From: Candidatus Micrarchaeota archaeon
GTDB taxonomy: Archaea; Micrarchaeota; Micrarchaeia; Anstonellales; Anstonellaceae
NCBI GenBank assembly: GCA_013331805.1
Contig: DUFS01000027.1
Span: 26,555 to 59,522, forward strand
Length of the DNA stretch: 32,968 bases
Direction: 5' to 3'
Shown here piece by piece: positions 24,848 through 32,820 of this stretch; the stretch's first letter is position 1, and every line of letters begins with the position of its first letter. The notes beneath the pieces are model-generated. The model was not told the DNA's origin, ran no database searches, and saw only the letters and a list, made by a program, of their open reading frames with translations. The position numbers and the translations under genes were made by a program.

Positions 24848-25176
24848 ACAGCGCTGTCATAATCAAGTTCGAGGCGGACGCAATCGCCGCACAGGATGAC
24901 ATCTTGCCGCAATTCAACGCCTACATGCAGCAAAGTGCGCACTCCCCCTCCTTTGTGCATGATAAGGAGGGCTACTTCCGCCTTTCATATGATGAAAAAG
25001 CCGGCATTTCGTCCGCAGGTGTGATGGAGCTTGGCAAGTTTTTGCAGACATCCGGCTTCACAGTGACTGCGATAAGGAGCGCATCAGCAGGCGAAAGCGT
25101 GCTTGCAACAGAAGTGAAATACGAAAAAAGCGGCAAGGAGGGAAGCGTAGTGCTTTCCACTGTCAGGATTTATTGA
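24844..25176 (+). CDS. Hypothetical 110-aa protein inserted between grpE and dnaK
   Basis: Its ATG overlaps the grpE stop (ATGA at 24844-24847) and it ends 23 nt before the dnaK ATG. It is the only long ORF filling the gap. No motif recognised. Confidence 0.55.
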
Positions 25177-25199
25177 TACTATTAATAGGGGTGGTCAAC

Positions 25200-27071
25200 A
25201 TGGCAAAAATAATCGGAATCGACCTGGGCACATCGAACTCGGCGGCAGCCGTGCTTGAGGGCGGCAGGCCGGTGATAGTTCCATCAGCAGAAGGCGCCAC
25301 GCAGTACGGCAAGGCATTTCCTTCGTATGTGGCATTCACAAAAGAAGGCACCCGCCTTACCGGAGAGCCTGCGCGAAGGCAGGCTGTTGCCAATTCGGAA
25401 GCCACATTCACGGCATTCAAGCGCAAGATGGGCACTGACTTCAAGTACAAGGCGCAGGGCAAGGAATACCGGCCTCAGGAGCTCTCGGCTTTCCTGCTCC
25501 AGAAAATAAAGCAGGACGCGGAAATGTACCTTGGCGACAAGGTGGAAAAGGCAGTGATAACCGTTCCGGCCTACTTTGACGACAACCAGCGCCAGGCCAC
25601 AAAGGACGCCGGGGCGATTGCCGGCCTGGAAGTGGTCCGCATAATCAACGAGCCCACTGCAGCGGCATTGGCTTACGGGCTGGACAAGGCCGGAAAGGAC
25701 CAGAAAATCGTGGTCTTTGACCTTGGAGGCGGCACCCTGGACGTGACAATAATGGATTTCGGCAAGGGCGTTTTCGAGGTGAAATCGACCTCGGGAGACA
25801 CTCAGCTTGGCGGAACCGACATGGACAACGCCATAGTGGACTACCTTGTCGGCGTTTTCCTGCGCGAGACAGGGATCAATGTTCAGGAGGACAGGCAGGC
25901 AATGCAGCGGTTGCGCGAGGCGGGCGAAAAGGCGAAGATAGAGCTTTCAACGGTTATTGAGTCGGAGATCAACCTGCCCTTCCTGTCAGCAGACAAGTCG
26001 GGTCCCAAGCATTTTGTCCACAAGCTCACCCGGGCAAAGCTCGAGGAAATCGTCGAGCCCATTGTGAGCAGGTGCAAAAGGCCGCTGCAGCAGGCGCTTT
26101 CAGACGCCAAGCTCACCCCAACGCAGATCGACAAGGTGATACTTGTGGGCGGGCCCACCCGCATGCCAATAGTCCAGCGCTTTACAGAAAGCGCATTCGG
26201 GAAAAAGGCAGAGGGCGGCGTGGACCCCATGGAATGCGTGGCAATGGGCGCTGCAGTGCAGGCAGGCGTGATTTCGGGCGATGTGAAGGACATACTGCTG
26301 CTCGACGTGACCCCCCTTGCGCTCGGCATTGAAACTCTTGGCGGAGTATTCACCAAACTGATCGAGCGCAACACCACAATTCCGACAAAAAAGTCGCAAA
26401 CATTCTCAACTGCGGCAGACTCCCAGACTTCTGTCGAGGTGCACGTGCTGCAGGGCGAAAGGGCAATGGCGCGCGACAACGTGGAGCTTGGAAAATTCGC
26501 CCTTGTTGGCTTGCCGCCAGCTCCCCGCGGCGTTCCCCAGATAGAGGTATCTTTCGATATAGACGCCAACGGAATCATACACGTATCCGCAAAGGACATG
26601 GGAACCGGCAAGGAGCAGAAGATCCAGATAGTCGCGCCCCACAAGATGGACAAGTCCGAAATAGAAAAGAAAATGCGCGAGGCGGAGCAGTTTTCAGAAA
26701 CTGACAAGAAGCTGCGGGAAGAGGTGGAGCTCAAGAACGAAGCCGAATCGCTTGTTTACACCTCGGAAAAGACGGTTGCTGAGTTCGGGGACAAATTCCC
26801 TGCAGACCTCAAGGCTGCGGTGCAGGATGCCGCCAAGGAGCTGAAAGACGCACTTGCGAAAAATGACAGCGCTGTAATAAAGCCTGCTGTTGACAAGCTG
26901 AAAAAAGCGCTTCAGGACGCGGGCGCCTCGCTATACAAGGGCGGTCAGCAGGGAGGGGGTCCGGGAACAGGCGGTCCCGGAGATGCTCCAGACTTCGGGG
27001 CAGGCGACTCGGGCGGCACGAGCGGCCCTGGCAACGAAAACGTCTACGATGCCGATTACAAAAAGGTTTAA
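25200..27071 (+). CDS. dnaK: Hsp70 chaperone DnaK
   Basis: From ATG 25200 ([14 protein letters not shown]), preceded by GGGGTGG. Motifs DLGGGTLDV and [11 protein letters not shown], with a Gly-rich C-terminal tail. The track ORF start (25173) adds 9 implausible residues. Confidence 0.96.
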
Positions 27072-27565
27072 CGCAGCACAACAAGGTTTGCCATTCCCCT
27101 TCTCTTCCTTTCAACAATTCCCTTTTGCTCCAGCCTGTCAAGCATTCGCGAAACTTTCACCTTGGAATAGTCAAGCTCCTTAATGACATCAGACTGGAAG
27201 GCAGAGCCGCCCTTTTCCTGCAGGACTCCGATTATCCTTTTCTCATCGGCGTCAAGAGTTGAAACGTCAATTTTCTTGGTTTGCTTCCGCTCGACCGCAA
27301 TTCTTTCTTCCCTTTCAGGCTCAGGCTTTTTGCGCAACTGGAAGAAAATCCAGCCGACAATAAGGGCTATCACCAATATCAGCACGGCGATCACAATATT
27401 CTGGGTTTCCACCACTTTCTCGTGCGGGCAGTTTATGCTGGAATCTGTGCAGCTTTCTGCCGCAAGGTCGTTGAGCGTGCGATTATAGAAAAAAATAGCC
27501 AAAGCGAAAAGTATCAGGAGTATTGCGATTACCCCTGGCAAGGTTTTGTTTTCAGCCAAATTCAT
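27068..27565 (-). CDS. Membrane-tethered winged-helix regulator (2 TM, extracytoplasmic Cys-x6-Cys-Pro-His loop, cytoplasmic wHTH)
   Basis: 165 codons. TM1 is [19 protein letters not shown], the loop is [29 protein letters not shown], and TM2 is [21 protein letters not shown] followed by RKK. The C-terminal wHTH is [50 protein letters not shown]. The gene is divergent from the cop genes. Confidence 0.75.
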
Positions 27566-27586: not shown

Positions 27587-27645
27587 CCTGTGAAACTAGT
27601 TTCACAGGTACCTATTTAAACTGTTCAGTTTCCGCTCTGTTCAGT
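27587..27645. promoter_or_regulatory. Divergent promoter/operator region: perfect 22-bp palindrome, TATA box, 9-nt direct repeats
   Basis: CCTGTGAAACTAGTTTCACAGG at 27587-27608 is a perfect palindrome. TATTTAAA lies at 27613-27620. CTGTTCAGT occurs at 27621-27629 and 27637-27645. GGGTGAT (27658-27664) precedes the copZ ATG at 27670. Confidence 0.6.
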
Positions 27646-27669: not shown

Positions 27670-27864
27670 ATGAAAAAAACATTCAAGGTAAGCGGCATGC
27701 ACTGCCCAAGCTGCGAGAAGGTACTGCAGATGGACATTGGCGAAATAGCCGGAGTCAAGTCCGTCAAGGCGAATTACAAAGCCGGAACTGTAGATGTGAA
27801 TGGCGAAGGCTTTGACGAGTCGGCAGTGAAGAAGGCTATAGTGCAAAACGGATACAAGGTCTGA
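27670..27864 (+). CDS. copZ: Copper chaperone, single heavy-metal-associated (HMA) domain
   Basis: 64 codons from ATG 27670: MKKTFKVSGMHCPSCEKV... (GMxCxxC). The upstream part of track ORF 27523-27864 covers the promoter region and is not coding. Confidence 0.88.
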   Translation: MKKTFKVSGMHCPSCEKVLQMDIGEIAGVKSVKANYKAGTVDVNGEGFDESAVKKAIVQNGYKV

Positions 27865-27868
27865 TAAA

Positions 27869-28801
27869 ATGGAAACCAACAAGTCAATAAACATAGCCGG
27901 GATGACCTGCAGCTCCTGCGAGCGGCTGATAACCAAAGCAGTGGAATCAGAAGGCGGCAAGGTCCATAGCATAAGCGCCACCTCTGGCAAGGCAGTGGTG
28001 GACTATCAAGAAGGAACACTCGAGAGGATAAAAACAGCTATCGCTGCATCTGGCTACAGCGTGCTTGACGGCGCTGGCAAGACCGTGGTAGTCGAGCCAT
28101 TTGAGGCCGAGATAAAGATTTTCCTAAAAAAGCTTGTTGACGGGGAAAAAGAGCTCAAAACAGAGCGCAAGATAGTAAAAATGTCCATGCTTTCCATTCT
28201 AGCCCTTGCGGCAATAGGGTTTTTCTTCTACATGACATTCTGGCGCGGCTTGCCAGGCATCGGCGCAAGAATCCCGTTTTTATTCTACTCAGGAGTTTCG
28301 GCAGTTGCCATCACTGCCGCAGTGGCACACTACAACTCACACCGTTTTCAATTCACCTGCATGGAGGGCATGATGACCGGCATGACAATCGGCATGATAG
28401 CTGGCTTCCTCTTTGGTGCAGTTGTTGGGGCGACAAACGGCATGTTCATAGGCAGCGTTTTCGGAATGGCGGTCGGCATGATTGCAGGCGCTTACTGCGG
28501 AAAATGCTGTGGCATTATGGGCGTAATGGAGGGCATGATGGCCGGCTTGATGGGCGGGACAATGGGTGCCATGCTCACGGTGATGATGATTGCCGACAAC
28601 CTGCTGCTGTTCATGCCACTTTTTGTCATATCATGCGTGGCGATATTGGCTGGCCTGACTTACATGATATATCATACGGCGGGCAAGCGCTCCGAAGGGC
28701 AGCTGATGCTATTTTCAGATTTCTTTTTGATCTGCCTTCTTCTTTCAGTAGTTACAACAGTAATAGTAATATTCGGGCCAAAAAGCCCAGTAGCAATATA
28801 G
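27869..28801 (+). CDS. HMA domain fused to a polytopic Met/Gly/Cys-rich membrane domain (uncharacterised)
   Basis: 310 codons. N-terminal INIAGMTCSSCERLI HMA fold, then about 6-7 hydrophobic segments containing CMEGMMTGMTIGMIAG, GMAVGMIAGAYCGKCCGIMGVMEGMMAGLMGGTMGAM. Confidence 0.8.
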   Translation: METNKSINIAGMTCSSCERLITKAVESEGGKVHSISATSGKAVVDYQEGTLERIKTAIAASGYSVLDGAGKTVVVEPFEAEIKIFLKKLVDGEKELKTERKIVKMSMLSILALAAIGFFFYMTFWRGLPGIGARIPFLFYSGVSAVAITAAVAHYNSHRFQFTCMEGMMTGMTIGMIAGFLFGAVVGATNGMFIGSVFGMAVGMIAGAYCGKCCGIMGVMEGMMAGLMGGTMGAMLTVMMIADNLLLFMPLFVISCVAILAGLTYMIYHTAGKRSEGQLMLFSDFFLICLLLSVVTTVIVIFGPKSPVAI

Positions 28802-28813
28802 GGGGTGTTATTG

Positions 28814-29473
28814 ATGGATGAGATTGAACAAAAATTGCCAGACGGTTTGGAGCAAAAAAAACTGGCAGATGGCTTGGAGCAAACTGAATTGGAAGCAGCG
28901 CCTAGCCCTGGGCTCAACGCTGAGAAAATTTTCTGGGGCCTGACAGTGTTCGCAGTGGCCGGGCTCTTCATGTTCTTTGCCTTTGCAGGCTTGGTGGCTC
29001 CGGTCAGCGCCGCGGTGCAGCAGGCCGTTCCACAGCCTTTATTGCCCAAAGCGGCTCAGCCTTCCGGCTCTGTTTCAGGGGGGCAGCTTGCGCCAGTGGC
29101 AAACGGCATTCAGGAAATCACGCTGTCAGTGCAGGGCGCGAATTACATGCCCAATCCCATTCGCGTGAAAAAGGGGATTCCTGTGAGAATCACCGCTGAC
29201 CTCAGCTCGGTTCGCGGCTGCGCAAGCAGCATAGTAATACCTGATTTTGGTGTGCGAAAGACCTTCAGGCAGGGAGACAACTTTGTGGAATTCACTCCGG
29301 ACAAGTCAGGCACCTTTGATTTCGGCTGCTCTATGTGGATGTACACCGGCAAGATAGTGGTTGAGGAAGCCGACGGTTCAGTGGCCCAGTATTCCGGCGC
29401 GCCAACAGCGCAGCAGGCTGGCGGCACACCCTCATGCGGCGCAGGCGGTGGCGGCTGCGGATGTGGAGGCTGA
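28814..29473 (+). CDS. Membrane-anchored cupredoxin-like protein with a Cys/Gly-rich C-terminal tail
   Basis: ATG 28814 is preceded by GGGGGTG (the track starts at GTG 28805). TM anchor IFWGLTVFAVAGLFMFFAFAGLV. Cupredoxin-like beta domain ITLSVQGANYMPNPIRVKKGIPVRI...RGCASSIVIP...GTFDFGCSMWMYTGKIVV. Tail SCGAGGGGCGCGG. Confidence 0.75.
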   Translation: MDEIEQKLPDGLEQKKLADGLEQTELEAAPSPGLNAEKIFWGLTVFAVAGLFMFFAFAGLVAPVSAAVQQAVPQPLLPKAAQPSGSVSGGQLAPVANGIQEITLSVQGANYMPNPIRVKKGIPVRITADLSSVRGCASSIVIPDFGVRKTFRQGDNFVEFTPDKSGTFDFGCSMWMYTGKIVVEEADGSVAQYSGAPTAQQAGGTPSCGAGGGGCGCGG

Positions 29474-29518: not shown

Positions 29519-31681
29519 ATGAAAAAGGAAGACTTCACCATAAACGGCATGCACTGCGCCAGCTGTGCCTCGCTGATAACCAAGGGGATTTCCAAGCTGC
29601 CTGGCGTCCAAAAGGCAAATGTGAACTATGCCGCAGCGCGCGCGCAAGTGGAATATGACGAATCGCTTGTCAGCCAGCAGCAGTTGCTGGAAAAAGTTGC
29701 TTCTCTGGGCTACAGCGCAGTGCCTGGCTTTGATTCCGAACGCGAGAAAAAGGAGCGGGCGCATGAAATCTCCGAACTCAAGCTGAAGCTTCTCTTTGGC
29801 GCAGTGCTCTCAATTCCCGCAATTGCACTCGGCATGTTTCTTATGGACTTTCCAAACCGGCTATGGCTGCTGTTCTTCCTTTCAACACCTGTCCAGTTCA
29901 TCGTTGGCGCAGGCTTTTACCAGGGCGCAATATCGGCAGCACGCAACAAGACGGCATCAATGGACACGCTCATCGCCGTTGGCACAACTGCAGCCTACCT
30001 TTTCTCCTTTGCAGCGCTTTTCGGCTTTGTGGAAGAGCAATATTTTGAGGTGAGCGCAAGCTTGATTACGCTTGTAATATTGGGCAAATACCTTGAAGCT
30101 GTGGCAAAAGGCAGGACCAGCGACGCAATAAGGAAGCTCATGGACCTTTCCCCAAAGATGGCGCACGTGATCAGGGGCGGCAAGGAAATCGAGATTCCTT
30201 CCTCAGAGGTGATTGCAGGGGACCACGTGCTGGTCAAGCCGGGCGAGCGGATTCCGGTTGACGGCATTGTTCTTGAAGGCGACTCGTCCGTGGACGAAAG
30301 CCTGGTTACCGGCGAGTCCATCCCGGTTGAAAAAGCAAAAGGCAGCAAAGTGATTGCAGGCTCAATAAACAAGCACGGCACGCTCACATTCAAGGCAACT
30401 GCGGTTGGCAAGGGCACTGTTCTCGCCCAGATAGTCAGGCTGGTTGAGGAGGCGCAGGGCAGCCGCGCTCCCATCCAGAGGTTTGCCGATACAATAAGCG
30501 CATATTTTGTCCCAGTGGTCATCGTGCTTGCAATCCTCACGTTTTCCTACTGGTATTTCGTGGCATCAGCCGGATTCTCGTTCGCGCTGATTCTTGCGGT
30601 TTCAGTGCTTGTGATAGCCTGCCCCTGCGCGCTCGGCCTTGCCACGCCGACCGCGATAATGGTGGGCACAGGCTTGGGTGCGCAAAAGGGCATACTGATA
30701 AAGAACGCAGAGGCCCTCGAGACCATGCACAAGATAAAAGCGGTGATATTCGACAAGACCGGCACCATAACCGAAGGCAAGCCAAAAGTGACTGACATCG
30801 TGCCAATCACAAAAATTTCGCAGGCAGAGCTTCTTTCCATTGCAGCATCGCTTGAGAAGCCATCCGAGCATCCGCTTGCAGAAGCCATAGTGAACGGGGC
30901 AAAAGAACGCAATGCGGCAATCTCAAAGGTAAGCGACTTCAAAAGCCACCCTGGAAAGGGCGTGAGCGGTAAAATCGGGAATGCAGCTTACCAGGTGGGC
31001 AGCTTCCGCCTCTTTGAATCCATAAAAGGCAAGGTCCTGTCGCATTCGCAGAAGCTGGAAAATGAGGGCAAGACCGCCATGTTTGTCGGCAAGGGCAAGG
31101 AGATAATCGGGATAGTCGCCGTAGCCGACAATGTAAAGCAGACTTCGCAGCAGGCGGTTTCAGAGCTTCGCAAGCTCGGAATCGAAAGCTACCTTCTCAC
31201 TGGCGACAACGAGCGTACCGCTAAAGCCATATCTGCAAAGGCCGGGATAAGAAAATTCTTTGCCAAGGTAATGCCTGACAAGAAGGCAGACTATGTCAAG
31301 AAGATGCAGTCCAAGGGCAAAGTGGTGGCAATGGTGGGCGACGGGGTTAACGATGCGCCTGCGCTTGCGGCTGCCGACATAGGGATAGCAATGGGCTCGG
31401 GAACAGACGTGGCGATGGAATCCGGCAGCGTGGTGCTGATGCGCTCCGACCCCATGGACGTGCCGCGTTCCATCAGGCTTGGCAGGGCGACAATGGACAA
31501 GATAAAGCAGAACATGTTCTGGGCGCTCATCTACAATATCATTGGCATACCGATTGCTGCCGGCGTCCTCTATTCATCCACAGGCTGGCTCCTTTCGCCA
31601 ATACTAGCTGGCGGGGCTATGGCGCTTTCATCAGTGTCGGTTGTCACGAACGCGCTAACGCTGAAATGGATAAGACTGTAA
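29519..31681 (+). CDS. copA: Copper-translocating P1B-type ATPase
   Basis: 720 codons. N-terminal HMA GMHCASC, then TGES, CPC (ACPCALGLATP), DKTGTIT, SEHPLA and GDGVNDAPAL. Strong GGAGGT (29507-29512) lies 6 nt before the ATG. Confidence 0.96.
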   Translation: MKKEDFTINGMHCASCASLITKGISKLPGVQKANVNYAAARAQVEYDESLVSQQQLLEKVASLGYSAVPGFDSEREKKERAHEISELKLKLLFGAVLSIPAIALGMFLMDFPNRLWLLFFLSTPVQFIVGAGFYQGAISAARNKTASMDTLIAVGTTAAYLFSFAALFGFVEEQYFEVSASLITLVILGKYLEAVAKGRTSDAIRKLMDLSPKMAHVIRGGKEIEIPSSEVIAGDHVLVKPGERIPVDGIVLEGDSSVDESLVTGESIPVEKAKGSKVIAGSINKHGTLTFKATAVGKGTVLAQIVRLVEEAQGSRAPIQRFADTISAYFVPVVIVLAILTFSYWYFVASAGFSFALILAVSVLVIACPCALGLATPTAIMVGTGLGAQKGILIKNAEALETMHKIKAVIFDKTGTITEGKPKVTDIVPITKISQAELLSIAASLEKPSEHPLAEAIVNGAKERNAAISKVSDFKSHPGKGVSGKIGNAAYQVGSFRLFESIKGKVLSHSQKLENEGKTAMFVGKGKEIIGIVAVADNVKQTSQQAVSELRKLGIESYLLTGDNERTAKAISAKAGIRKFFAKVMPDKKADYVKKMQSKGKVVAMVGDGVNDAPALAAADIGIAMGSGTDVAMESGSVVLMRSDPMDVPRSIRLGRATMDKIKQNMFWALIYNIIGIPIAAGVLYSSTGWLLSPILAGGAMALSSVSVVTNALTLKWIRL

Positions 31682-31719: not shown

Positions 31720-32283
31720 ATGGGAAAAATTTACGGGATGCTTGTATTGCTTGCGCTATTCGGCGCTTTTTTTGCATCAAGCGCAGAAGAAATCGCAACC
31801 GGAAAGGCACTCGTGGATGCAAAGGCCGACTGCGGCAAACTGAGCCAAGACCAACTGGAATCAATAGGTGAATACATCATGGAACTTCGGCACTCAGGGC
31901 AAGCGCATGAATACATGGACAACATGATGGGCGGCGAGGGTTCAGCCAGCCTCAAGAATGCACACATCCAGATGGCGCAGGTCATGTACTGCGGAAGGAC
32001 CGATGTGCCCCTGACGTACGGCGGCATGATGGGCATGGAAATGATAGGCGGCTACGGGGCAGGGGCGGCTGGTAGCTACGGAATGATGGGCGCAGGAGCG
32101 CGCTCTGGGATGATGGGCTTTGCTTCCGGCTCGCCAGGCTACGGCATGATGGGCTACGGCTATCCTTCCTACGGCTGGGGCATCACCGACATTCTCGTCG
32201 TGATATTGTTCATCGGCCTGATACTGCTGGTCTATGCCCACGCACTGGGCAAGCTGAGGGAGGGCAAGGAAAAAAGGAAGTGA
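31720..32283 (+). CDS. Exported, C-terminally anchored protein with a Met/Gly/Tyr-rich low-complexity region (putative Cu(I)-binding)
   Basis: 187 codons. Signal peptide MGKIYGMLVLLALFGAFFASSA, a helical region with HEYMDNMMGGEGS, then YGGMMGMEMIGGYGAGAAGSYGMMGAGARSGMMGFASGSPGYGMMGYGYPSYGWG. C-terminal TM ITDILVVILFIGLILLVYAHAL followed by KLREGKEKRK. Confidence 0.7.
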   Translation: MGKIYGMLVLLALFGAFFASSAEEIATGKALVDAKADCGKLSQDQLESIGEYIMELRHSGQAHEYMDNMMGGEGSASLKNAHIQMAQVMYCGRTDVPLTYGGMMGMEMIGGYGAGAAGSYGMMGAGARSGMMGFASGSPGYGMMGYGYPSYGWGITDILVVILFIGLILLVYAHALGKLREGKEKRK

Positions 32284-32289
32284 GCACTG

Positions 32290-32820
32290 GTGATTGCAGT
32301 GAAATTGAACAATGTAGACATGGACAAAGCTGGCGCATTTGCACAAGAGGCAAAGGCAGACAGAAGCAAGGCGATTAAGGCAAAGAAGGTTGAGGGCAGC
32401 TGGAATTTCTCGGAACGCGGGCCGCAGTTCTCAGCCGTGCTTGCGCATGCCTCAGGAACCACCACAATTGAGGCAGACGCGCCGCCGTTTCTGGGCGGGG
32501 GAGGGCAGAAACCGGACCCAGTGCAGTACTGCCTCTTCGGGCTGGCAGCCTGCTTTGCGCAGACATTCGCGTCAGTGGCAGCGGAAAAAGGCGTGAAGCT
32601 CTCGAAACTCTCAGTATCGGCGCAAAACACCGTCAACCTTTCAGCTGCGCTTGGCATTGGGAAAGAGCCGCCCACCGAACTGGTAAAAATAACGGTAACC
32701 GCCTCAGGAGCCGAAAGCTCCAAGCTCCCTGAAATAGAGGCGCTTGCAAAAGAGAGGTGCCCAGGCGTCCACTGCCTGACCAACCCGATAAGGCTACAGA
32801 CCGAGCTGAAAGTTGAATGA
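32290..32820 (+). CDS. OsmC/Ohr-family peroxiredoxin-like protein
   Basis: 176 codons, GTG start. PDPVQYCLFGLAACFAQTF and KERCPGVHCLTNPI provide the two conserved Cys contexts of the OsmC fold. Confidence 0.8.
   Translation: MIAVKLNNVDMDKAGAFAQEAKADRSKAIKAKKVEGSWNFSERGPQFSAVLAHASGTTTIEADAPPFLGGGGQKPDPVQYCLFGLAACFAQTFASVAAEKGVKLSKLSVSAQNTVNLSAALGIGKEPPTELVKITVTASGAESSKLPEIEALAKERCPGVHCLTNPIRLQTELKVE

Follow-up and report, generated by a model that had tools for sequence, protein, structure and literature searches.

What does a small membrane protein crowded with methionine and glycine do inside an archaeal copper gene cluster? The question is raised by a 32,968-nt stretch of DNA (the window, meaning the whole stretch analyzed) from contig DUFS01000027.1 of a Candidatus Micrarchaeota archaeon, in which an open reading frame (ORF) on the forward strand (27869..28801) encodes a 310-aa protein, the target of this analysis, with an N-terminal HMA domain followed by a seven-transmembrane (7TM) domain. 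An original prediction, made from the sequence of the window, had proposed that its Met- and Cys-rich helices conduct or sequester Cu(I). From the homologue family, an AlphaFold2 (AF2) model, and the neighboring genes, we judge the chances about even that the target is a seven-TM Cu(I)-handling protein of an undescribed family that is paired with a CupA-like cupredoxin encoded downstream and relays Cu(I) across the membrane.

A conserved methionine ladder in a seven-helix membrane domain

The protein quoted in the original prediction is the exact translation of the target ORF. Its residues 7–63 (27887..28057, forward strand) form an HMA (ferredoxin-like) metal-binding domain with the motif GMTCSSC, predicted to be cytoplasmic. 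This domain scores above the Pfam PF00403 cut-off (27.6 vs 24.8 bits, E = 4e-6), draws CopZ-type matches among the NCBIfam models, and resembles CopZ and Atx1 (target-normalized TM-score, TMt, ∼0.8) when the AF2 model is compared with the Protein Data Bank (PDB) by Foldseek. Its elements follow the order E-H-E-E-H-E in the model, and a signal peptide is absent from its N-terminus. The canonical HMA fold proposed for this region is thus borne out.

The AF2 model, built from 51 homologues, has a mean predicted local distance difference test (pLDDT) score of 92.7 and a predicted TM-score (pTM) of 0.82. An amphipathic linker helix leads from the HMA domain into a membrane domain spanning residues 94–302 (28148..28774, forward strand), with helices at 94–125, 131–161, 164–190, 192–214, 216–239, 245–269, and 282–302. 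The six to seven hydrophobic, Met-rich segments expected earlier therefore correspond to seven modeled helices, and residues 160–245 contain 17 Met and 19 Gly among 86 positions (20% and 22%). The CGKCCG cluster that had also been pointed out occupies residues 210–215 (nt 28496–28513).

We quantified conservation in an alignment of 246 diverse family members. Ten methionines (M168, M169, M172, M176, M217, M224, M228, M232, M235, and M239) are each conserved in 97–100% of them, those of TM3 (M168, M169, M172, and M176) at 98–100% and those of the TM5 ladder at 97–99% each. Because these positions are so nearly invariant, the richness in Met is not a matter of chance. The glycines of the GxxxG motifs reach 91–99%, and three polar residues are also well conserved (N190, 95%; E221, 91%; D243, 86%). 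Conservation of the cysteines is 87% for C164, 84% for C214, and 65% for C213.

These residues are distributed over three consecutive helices. TM3 (residues 164–190; 28358..28438, forward strand) starts with C164 at its cytoplasmic end, carries its methionines (M165, M168, M169, M172, and M176) in the cytoplasmic half between residues 165 and 176, and continues through a Gly zipper to an outer ATNG turn, while the outer half of TM4 adds M192, M200, and M204. TM5 (residues 216–243; 28514..28597, forward strand) presents the series M217-E221-M224-M228-M232-M235-M239-D243 across the bilayer. From the three- and four-residue steps of this series (4-3-4-4-3-4-4 from M217 to D243), we infer that it would form one stripe on a single helix face, running from the cytoplasmic turn to the outer side. 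One-residue turns join TM3 to TM4 (ATNG, outside) and TM4 to TM5 (CCG, inside, with the turn at residue 215) in the model. The vicinal pair C213-C214 of CGKCCG (28505..28510, forward strand) lies in the latter, and by model and conservation C164, C213, and C214 all map to cytoplasmic helix ends.

A CupA homologue as conserved partner in a copper gene cluster

The gene order copZ, target, cupredoxin, copA given in the original prediction agrees with the window ORFs and their Pfam matches. The 64-aa CopZ-type HMA metallochaperone (27670..27864, forward strand; Pfam HMA, E = 4e-13; NCBIfam CopZ models) ends 4 nt before the start codon of the target gene. CopA (29519..31681, forward strand), recognized by Pfam E1-E2_ATPase, Hydrolase, and HMA, is a Cu(I)-exporting ATPase of the P1B-1 type; it has an HMA domain at its N-terminus and, in its translation, the motifs CPC, N-x6-YN-x4-P, and M-x2-SS-x5-N. 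With these P1B-1 Cu(I) motifs and its HMA-type metal-binding domain, CopA speaks for copper as the metal of the locus. A scan of species-representative genomes yielded 44 related loci, at least 38 of which contain CopA, and CopZ is often encoded directly upstream of the 7TM gene.

The gene called a cupredoxin in the original prediction is, by its sequence, a homologue of Streptococcus pneumoniae CupA, a more specific assignment than a generic cupredoxin; this relationship, the predicted location of the protein outside the cell, and its standing as the family's conserved partner had all been missed. The gene (28805..29473, forward strand; the gene callers put its start at 28814) encodes a membrane-anchored protein with a Pfam Cupredoxin_1 match, the motifs RGC and CSMWM (CxMxM), and a Cys/Gly tail ending in ...CGAGGGGCGCGG. 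A PDB sequence search matched it to CupA (2MRY/4F2E; E = 1.3e-17 over 95 residues) and to the metal-binding domain (MBD) of S. pneumoniae CopA (4F2F; E = 6.7e-9). The upstream Cys in RGC and the CSMWM motif align to the Cys and CxMxM ligands of CupA, so that both defining features of the CupA family are recovered, the cupredoxin fold and the binuclear Cu(I) ligands provided by CxMxM and a bridging Cys. The partnership with the 7TM protein is also visible in synteny: the CupA-like gene starts at most ∼100 nt past the 7TM stop codon in 33 of the 44 related loci, and in the remaining loci it is fused to the 7TM gene in one (L043) and found elsewhere in the locus in five more.

Pneumococcal CupA has a binuclear Cys/Met Cu(I) site and a membrane anchor, its membrane tethering is known to matter, it is regarded as cytoplasmic, and a review describes it as limited to a few streptococci (PMC7558416). 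Its cytoplasmic orientation, from which it feeds a cupredoxin-type MBD of CopA, is not predicted for the archaeal protein. The CopA of the window has an HMA-type rather than a cupredoxin-type MBD, and the CupA-like protein therefore does not appear to serve the CopA N-terminus as in pneumococcus.

The Cys/Gly tail of the window protein lies at 29405–29473 (...SCGAGGGGCGCGG). Tails of the GCGCGG type are also found in 11 related loci (L007, L009, L010, L011, L017, L018, L021, L039, L042, L045, and L049) and are missing from the short (∼130 aa) CupA-like forms. Such a tail may offer additional thiolate metal binding or a site of lipid attachment.

Topology and natural fusions

Loop charges and domain fusions give the two proteins a consistent sidedness. 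Mean numbers of Lys plus Arg in the predicted cytoplasmic loops are 2.36 before TM1, 1.73 between TM2 and TM3, 0.89 between TM4 and TM5, and 2.81 between TM6 and TM7, compared with 0.52 (TM1-2), 0.00 (TM3-4), 0.20 (TM5-6), and 1.02 (C-terminal tail) on the predicted outer side, or ∼7.8 vs ∼1.7 in sum. This positive-inside bias indicates an N-in/C-out topology. One family member, P0236 (L051, 301–1800), consists of the HMA domain and TM1-5 followed by one TM helix in place of TM6-7 and then by HisKA_3 and HATPase_c domains; because its kinase domains must be cytoplasmic and follow six helices, a seventh helix would place the C-terminus outside. By prediction and by the logic of such fusions, the membrane domain is thus 7TM and N-in/C-out.

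In three other members, P0224 (the L043 protein), P0149, and P0223, a CupA-like domain is fused straight after TM7, without an additional TM helix. P0223 has a SurA_N domain, typically an extracytoplasmic domain, between its 7TM domain and the cupredoxin. P0149 combines an N-terminal, predicted cytoplasmic CVSC motif, the 7TM ladder, and a CupA-like domain in one chain, and the best PDB match of the fused CupA-like domain in its model is 4F2E. The window protein and all free homologues have an N-terminal hydrophobic anchor ahead of the cupredoxin domain, preceded in the free proteins by a Lys/Arg-rich n-region, the combination typical of an N-in/C-out signal anchor. On the basis of the signal-anchor features, the C-terminal fusions to an N-in/C-out 7TM domain, the SurA_N linker, and the charge bias, we predict that the CupA-like domain is extracytoplasmic.

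Size, distribution, and variation of the family

A search with the full-length target returned 1171 proteins at E ≤ 1e-5, named, where a name is given, as "hypothetical", "HMA domain-containing", "cation transporter", or "CopZ". With a profile of the membrane domain alone, 686 clusters (50% identity) among 1.84 billion representatives were found at E ≤ 1e-3 and 162 at E ≤ 1e-30. The target itself occurs in identical form on 10 contigs, including one from a groundwater metagenome.

Hosts of the 44 related loci include Micrarchaeota (closest to the target, 69% identity), Woesearchaeota, Nanoarchaeota, Pacearchaeota, and Aenigmatarchaeota, together with metagenome-assembled genomes (MAGs) labeled Methanosarcinales, Methanoculleus palmolei DSM 4273, Methanosphaerula subterraneus, a Methanoregulaceae MAG, and one bacterium of the candidate phyla radiation (CPR). 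Overall, members of the membrane family come from DPANN archaea, from some of the methanogens, and from a small number of CPR bacteria.

What stays constant across the family is the Met ladder; the thiolate donors vary. By a regular-expression estimate, ∼136 of the 246 aligned members have a CxxC motif or an HMA domain at the N-terminus and 68 have neither; some members lacking the HMA domain carry short CDEC, CVSC, or CC motifs instead. A subfamily of HMA-less proteins with CC-rich N-termini (P0233, P0258, P0234, P0227, P0239, and P0249) has a conserved "L.I.LD....v.sv.vN" region after the N-terminus, carries WCCGP instead of KCCG, and ends in Cys/Met-rich tails that contain the motifs PFS..E and EM.CGAMM. 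The kinase fusion P0236 is encoded between a CopZ-like gene and a response regulator gene, an arrangement that points to a new type of two-component system for sensing copper.

The membrane domain lacks recognizable relatives in Pfam, NCBIfam, and the PDB

The original prediction could match the protein to no named copper-transporter family, and searches of Pfam, NCBIfam, PDB sequences, and PDB folds agree. Neither Pfam nor NCBIfam has a model scoring above threshold on the membrane part of the target, and 19 members that naturally lack the HMA domain gave no consistent match when scanned at E ≤ 1. A PDB sequence search with the single protein returned only a low-complexity match to an ARID protein, and the best match of the membrane-domain profile to PDB sequences had an E-value of 0.59. 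When the model was compared with 350,542 PDB chains by Foldseek, the HMA domain alone matched, the best other matches having probabilities ≤ 0.21 and query-normalized TM-scores (TMq) ≤ 0.2; with the P0149 fusion model only the soluble domains matched, and the membrane part was again without a relative. Nor did Pfam, NCBIfam, PDB, or Foldseek connect the membrane part to a characterized family unrelated to metals. A full-text literature search found no description of the membrane family within its coverage, outside which most subscription journals lie.

Specific candidate families were rejected on several grounds. P1B-type ATPases are marked by an E1-E2 actuator, a HAD phosphorylation domain (DKTGT), and CPC in TM6; the target has no E1-E2_ATPase or Hydrolase match, as the exclusion of a P-type ATPase in the original prediction implied, whereas the neighboring CopA scores 211 and 132 bits. 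No match to CopD (PF05425), YebZ, or YcnJ emerged with the target (E ≤ 0.1) or with the 19 HMA-less members (E ≤ 1). Members of the CTR family (PF04145) have three-TM protomers with MxxxM in TM2 and GxxxG in TM3. The target, with seven TM helices, has neither a Pfam match to CTR nor a Foldseek match to a transporter (TMq ≤ 0.2), and its M-x3-M spacing is a resemblance at the level of the motif only. Among MerT, MerC, and MerF, the one signal came from NCBIfam MerTP_fusion, limited to the MerP-like HMA region (model positions 122–185) and scoring 30.6 bits against a cut-off of 180. Gly-zipper_YMGG (PF13441) gave the sole signal on the membrane part of the target, a weak one of ∼15 bits, and matched weakly in only six of the 19 members (14.6–16 bits vs a cut-off of 28.9). 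Thiol-disulfide relays of the CcdA/DsbD type have conserved Cys on both membrane faces or at helix centers; the target has no such Pfam match, and its conserved cysteines (C164, C213, and C214) all lie at cytoplasmic ends. With all conserved Cys on the cytoplasmic face, we also rejected a relay that would keep the Cys tail of the CupA-like protein reduced. The target belongs to a new protein family, apparently also new in its fold; the kind of system to which it contributes, chaperone-coupled membrane Cu(I) handling, is known.

A proposed Cu(I) relay and its alternatives

The idea that the protein conducts or sequesters Cu(I) gains considerable strength from the near-invariant methionines, the CupA-like partner, the fusions, and the CxxC and CC motifs, and from these sequence features we infer Cu(I) binding by the ladder and translocation. 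In the relay that we propose, CopZ or the target's own cytoplasmic HMA domain would hold Cu(I) and deliver it to an entry site on the inner face of the membrane, formed by the thiolates of C164, C213, and C214 and perhaps by H154. The ion would then step by ligand exchange along thioethers, through TM3 and TM5 in the inner leaflet and TM4 and TM5 in the outer leaflet, and exit at a polar outer cap (N190 and D243), where the Cys/CxMxM site of the extracytoplasmic, membrane-anchored CupA-like protein would take it up. We base this reading on the pattern of Met and Cys ligands, the cytoplasmic donors, the CupA-like partner, the predicted sidedness, the P0149 fusion, and the copper context, and for its direction we favor export or off-loading alongside CopA over the reverse.

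Several considerations weigh against such a relay. The Met side chains could face lipid or an oligomer interface rather than line a continuous path, and the Cys pair is not universal: methanogen members have SC at its position, a few members have no Cys there at all, and the conservation of C213 and C214 is incomplete (65% and 84%). The P0236 kinase fusion would need only binding, not transport, and a passive Cu(I) exporter beside the ATP-driven CopA would have no obvious energy source or need. The outward orientation predicted for the CupA-like domain also departs from the only characterized homologue, the CupA of S. pneumoniae, which is regarded as cytoplasmic (PMC7558416).

Part of this bears on an unlikely alternative that we nevertheless take seriously, in which the target transports nothing and is a membrane Cu(I) buffer, sensor, or docking platform that tethers the HMA domain near the CopA entry and the CupA-like protein near the CopA exit. 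P0236 uses the HMA domain and TM1-5 as the input of a kinase whose gene has a CopZ-like gene on one side and a response regulator on the other, pumping could be left to CopA, which is rarely absent, and membrane tethering of a chaperone matters for pneumococcal CupA (PMC7558416). However, kinases often recruit transporter-like domains as sensors, so the fusion is compatible with transport as well, and a tethering role leaves unexplained both the near-invariance of the outer-leaflet Met up to D243 and N190 and the soluble copper sites on both sides of one chain in P0149. An importer pair, functionally analogous to CopC/CopD (YcnJ, YobA/YebZ), we regard as less probable still: the CupA-like domain would capture Cu(I) outside, the ladder would conduct it inward, and the Cys site and HMA domain would hand it on to CopZ and to sensors in the cytoplasm or CopA. 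CopC/CopD and the YcnJ fusion share this layout, an extracytoplasmic beta-sandwich chaperone beside or fused to a polytopic protein (PMC8689200, PMC11923076, PMC13344008). High-affinity sites on both sides permit either direction, and CopCD genes also occur in resistance operons. Yet the target shows no sequence relationship to CopD and is co-transcribed with the exporter CopA and with CopZ rather than separately regulated, and its hosts are mostly DPANN archaea and methanogens, in which we assume little need for cytoplasmic copper.

The two remaining explanations concern the metal itself. A transporter of another thiophilic metal (Hg(II), Cd(II), or Ag(I) only) in the manner of MerT, MerC, and MerF with their vicinal cysteines would fit the CC pair in a membrane helix, the HMA domain, and the MerTP_fusion match, but that match stops at the MerP-like HMA region, no Mer-family model falls on the membrane part, and neither merA nor merR was matched among the scanned neighboring genes of the window. 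The target is partnered by a CupA homologue and by a P1B-1 Cu(I) ATPase whose motifs are of the copper type, and Met-dominated ligation favors Cu(I) or Ag(I), which makes this explanation very improbable. We give hardly any credence to a membrane or stress protein of the glycine-zipper kind with no link to metals, its richness in Met merely compositional, as the sub-threshold Gly-zipper_YMGG matches (14.6–16 vs 28.9 bits in six of 19 members) might suggest: conservation is position-specific for Met and not generally hydrophobic, and the HMA domain, the CxxC motifs, the CupA fusions, and the strict synteny with cop operons would be left aside.

A repeat without evidence of duplication

The original prediction also described a duplicated MEGMM.G element. 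The 21-nt repeat itself is where it had been placed, at 28361..28381 (MEGMMTG) and 28526..28546 (MEGMMAG) on the forward strand, with 0 matches expected from shuffled sequences, and it can be extended to 51 nt (73% identity) over a general 12-nt periodicity of the form (G-M-x-x)n. An internal duplication did not hold up: in a profile comparison (hhalign), TM3-4 against TM5-6 scored 14.1 with a probability of 3%, and reversed-column controls scored higher (18.3 and 20.9). The identical peptides MEGMM[T/A]G force 16 of the 21 bases. The four free synonymous sites agree between the copies (P ∼ 0.03 under the codon usage of the ORF, in which 24 of 37 Gly codons are GGC). When the copies are compared within orthologues, no more than 11–18 of the 21 bases agree, and only the target's lineage has the Glu of the first copy. 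Because the controls outscore the comparison, the bases are largely forced by the peptide, and the orthologous copies diverge, the similarity is indistinguishable from compositional periodicity, without demonstrable common ancestry.

Regulation and accessory genes of the locus

A divergent gene upstream of copZ (27068..27565, reverse strand) encodes a membrane-bound regulator with two TM helices, a winged helix-turn-helix domain (DUF7343/MarR_2 in Pfam), and a C-x7-C-P-H motif in the loop between the helices. Homologues of this DUF7343 regulator occur in 15 of the 44 related loci, and its sequence suggests a one-component sensor of metal outside the cell. The divergent region between the two genes contains a perfect 22-bp palindrome, CCTGTGAAACT|AGTTTCACAGG (27587..27608), followed by a TATA-like TATTTAAA (27613..27620). 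The 16-nt core of the palindrome, GTGAAACTAGTTTCAC, is found again in three distant loci (L023, L031, and L037), in the last two at most ∼130 nt from a DUF7343 regulator homologue, and the palindrome is likely the operator of the cop cluster.

Downstream of copA, a gene at 31720..32283 (forward strand) encodes a secreted 187-aa protein, rich in Met, Gly, and Tyr, that has a TM anchor at its C-terminus and no Pfam or NCBIfam family. It has a signal peptide, a small Cys-pair domain, and a long low-complexity stretch with MMGxxxGYG repeats. Homologues are found in seven related cop loci, making it a frequent accessory gene, and by its composition the protein may be an extracellular Met-rich copper sponge. 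An OsmC-family peroxiredoxin-like gene (32290–32820, forward strand) follows the copper cluster, and a TrmB-like helix-turn-helix (HTH) gene, grpE, and dnaK precede it (25173–27071, forward strand). With the OsmC-like gene after it and grpE and dnaK before it, the copper island is flanked by stress-response genes.

Relation to known systems and significance

The proposed relay has parallels in characterized proteins. In CTR1 (SLC31) and CusA, Cu(I) or Ag(I) is thought to step between Met thioethers through the membrane protein; these Met are arranged as MxxxM motifs in CTR and as pairs and triads in CusA. The likeness is confined to the Met relay, without homology: CTR is a three-TM trimer and CusA a 12-TM RND proton antiporter, whereas the target is a single 7TM chain in which ten or more invariant Met are combined with a proposed Cys entry site and with fused chaperone domains. 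MerT, MerC, MerF, and MerTP are likewise small and polytopic, have vicinal Cys in their TM helices, and are sometimes fused to an HMA domain (MerP), but only the HMA part of the target matches them, this domain is N-terminal and cytoplasmic in the target, and the context is copper, not mercury.

Similar in arrangement are CopC/CopD, YcnJ, and YobA/YebZ, in which a polytopic inner-membrane protein is paired, and sometimes fused, with an extracytoplasmic beta-sandwich chaperone in copper operons (PMC8689200, PMC11923076, PMC13344008). The target resembles CopD in neither sequence nor fold and has Met ladders, a Cys cluster, a cytoplasmic HMA domain, and seven TM helices, and its soluble partner, unlike CopC, is a CupA-type Cys/CxMxM Cu(I) protein. 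This partner shares with pneumococcal CupA the anchor, the Cys and CxMxM ligands, and a cop operon with CopA (PMC7558416). The two differ in that pneumococcal CupA is regarded as facing the cytoplasm and feeding a cupredoxin-type MBD of CopA, whereas the window version is predicted outside, beside a CopA whose MBD is an HMA domain. The published pneumococcal system (copY, cupA, and copA) has no counterpart of the 7TM protein that is the conserved partner here.

To our knowledge, what is understood of archaeal copper homeostasis comes almost entirely from CopA, CopZ, and a few regulators, and this applies above all to DPANN archaea and methanogens. The Met-ladder family, with ∼690 clusters at 50% identity and no database name, has among the clearest sequence signatures of a Met relay through a membrane. 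Its confirmation would bring a new family of transporters or relays into the copper field, extend CupA to a wide archaeal distribution with the opposite sidedness, and provide a compact, mutable system for Cu(I) movement along thioether ligands in a bilayer, for which the natural fusions (CxxC-7TM-CupA and HMA-5 TM-kinase) are ready-made constructs. The Met-ladder system could also mark metal stress in groundwater and sediment metagenomes. More tentatively, the family may be an unrecognized class of Cu(I) translocator, an ATP-free, single-chain thioether "wire" that would lead from an HMA or CxxC donor in the cytoplasm to a CupA-type acceptor outside it. If so, it would constitute a third prokaryotic copper-export route, beside P1B ATPases and RND systems, and CupA-type chaperones would originally have worked outside the cell.

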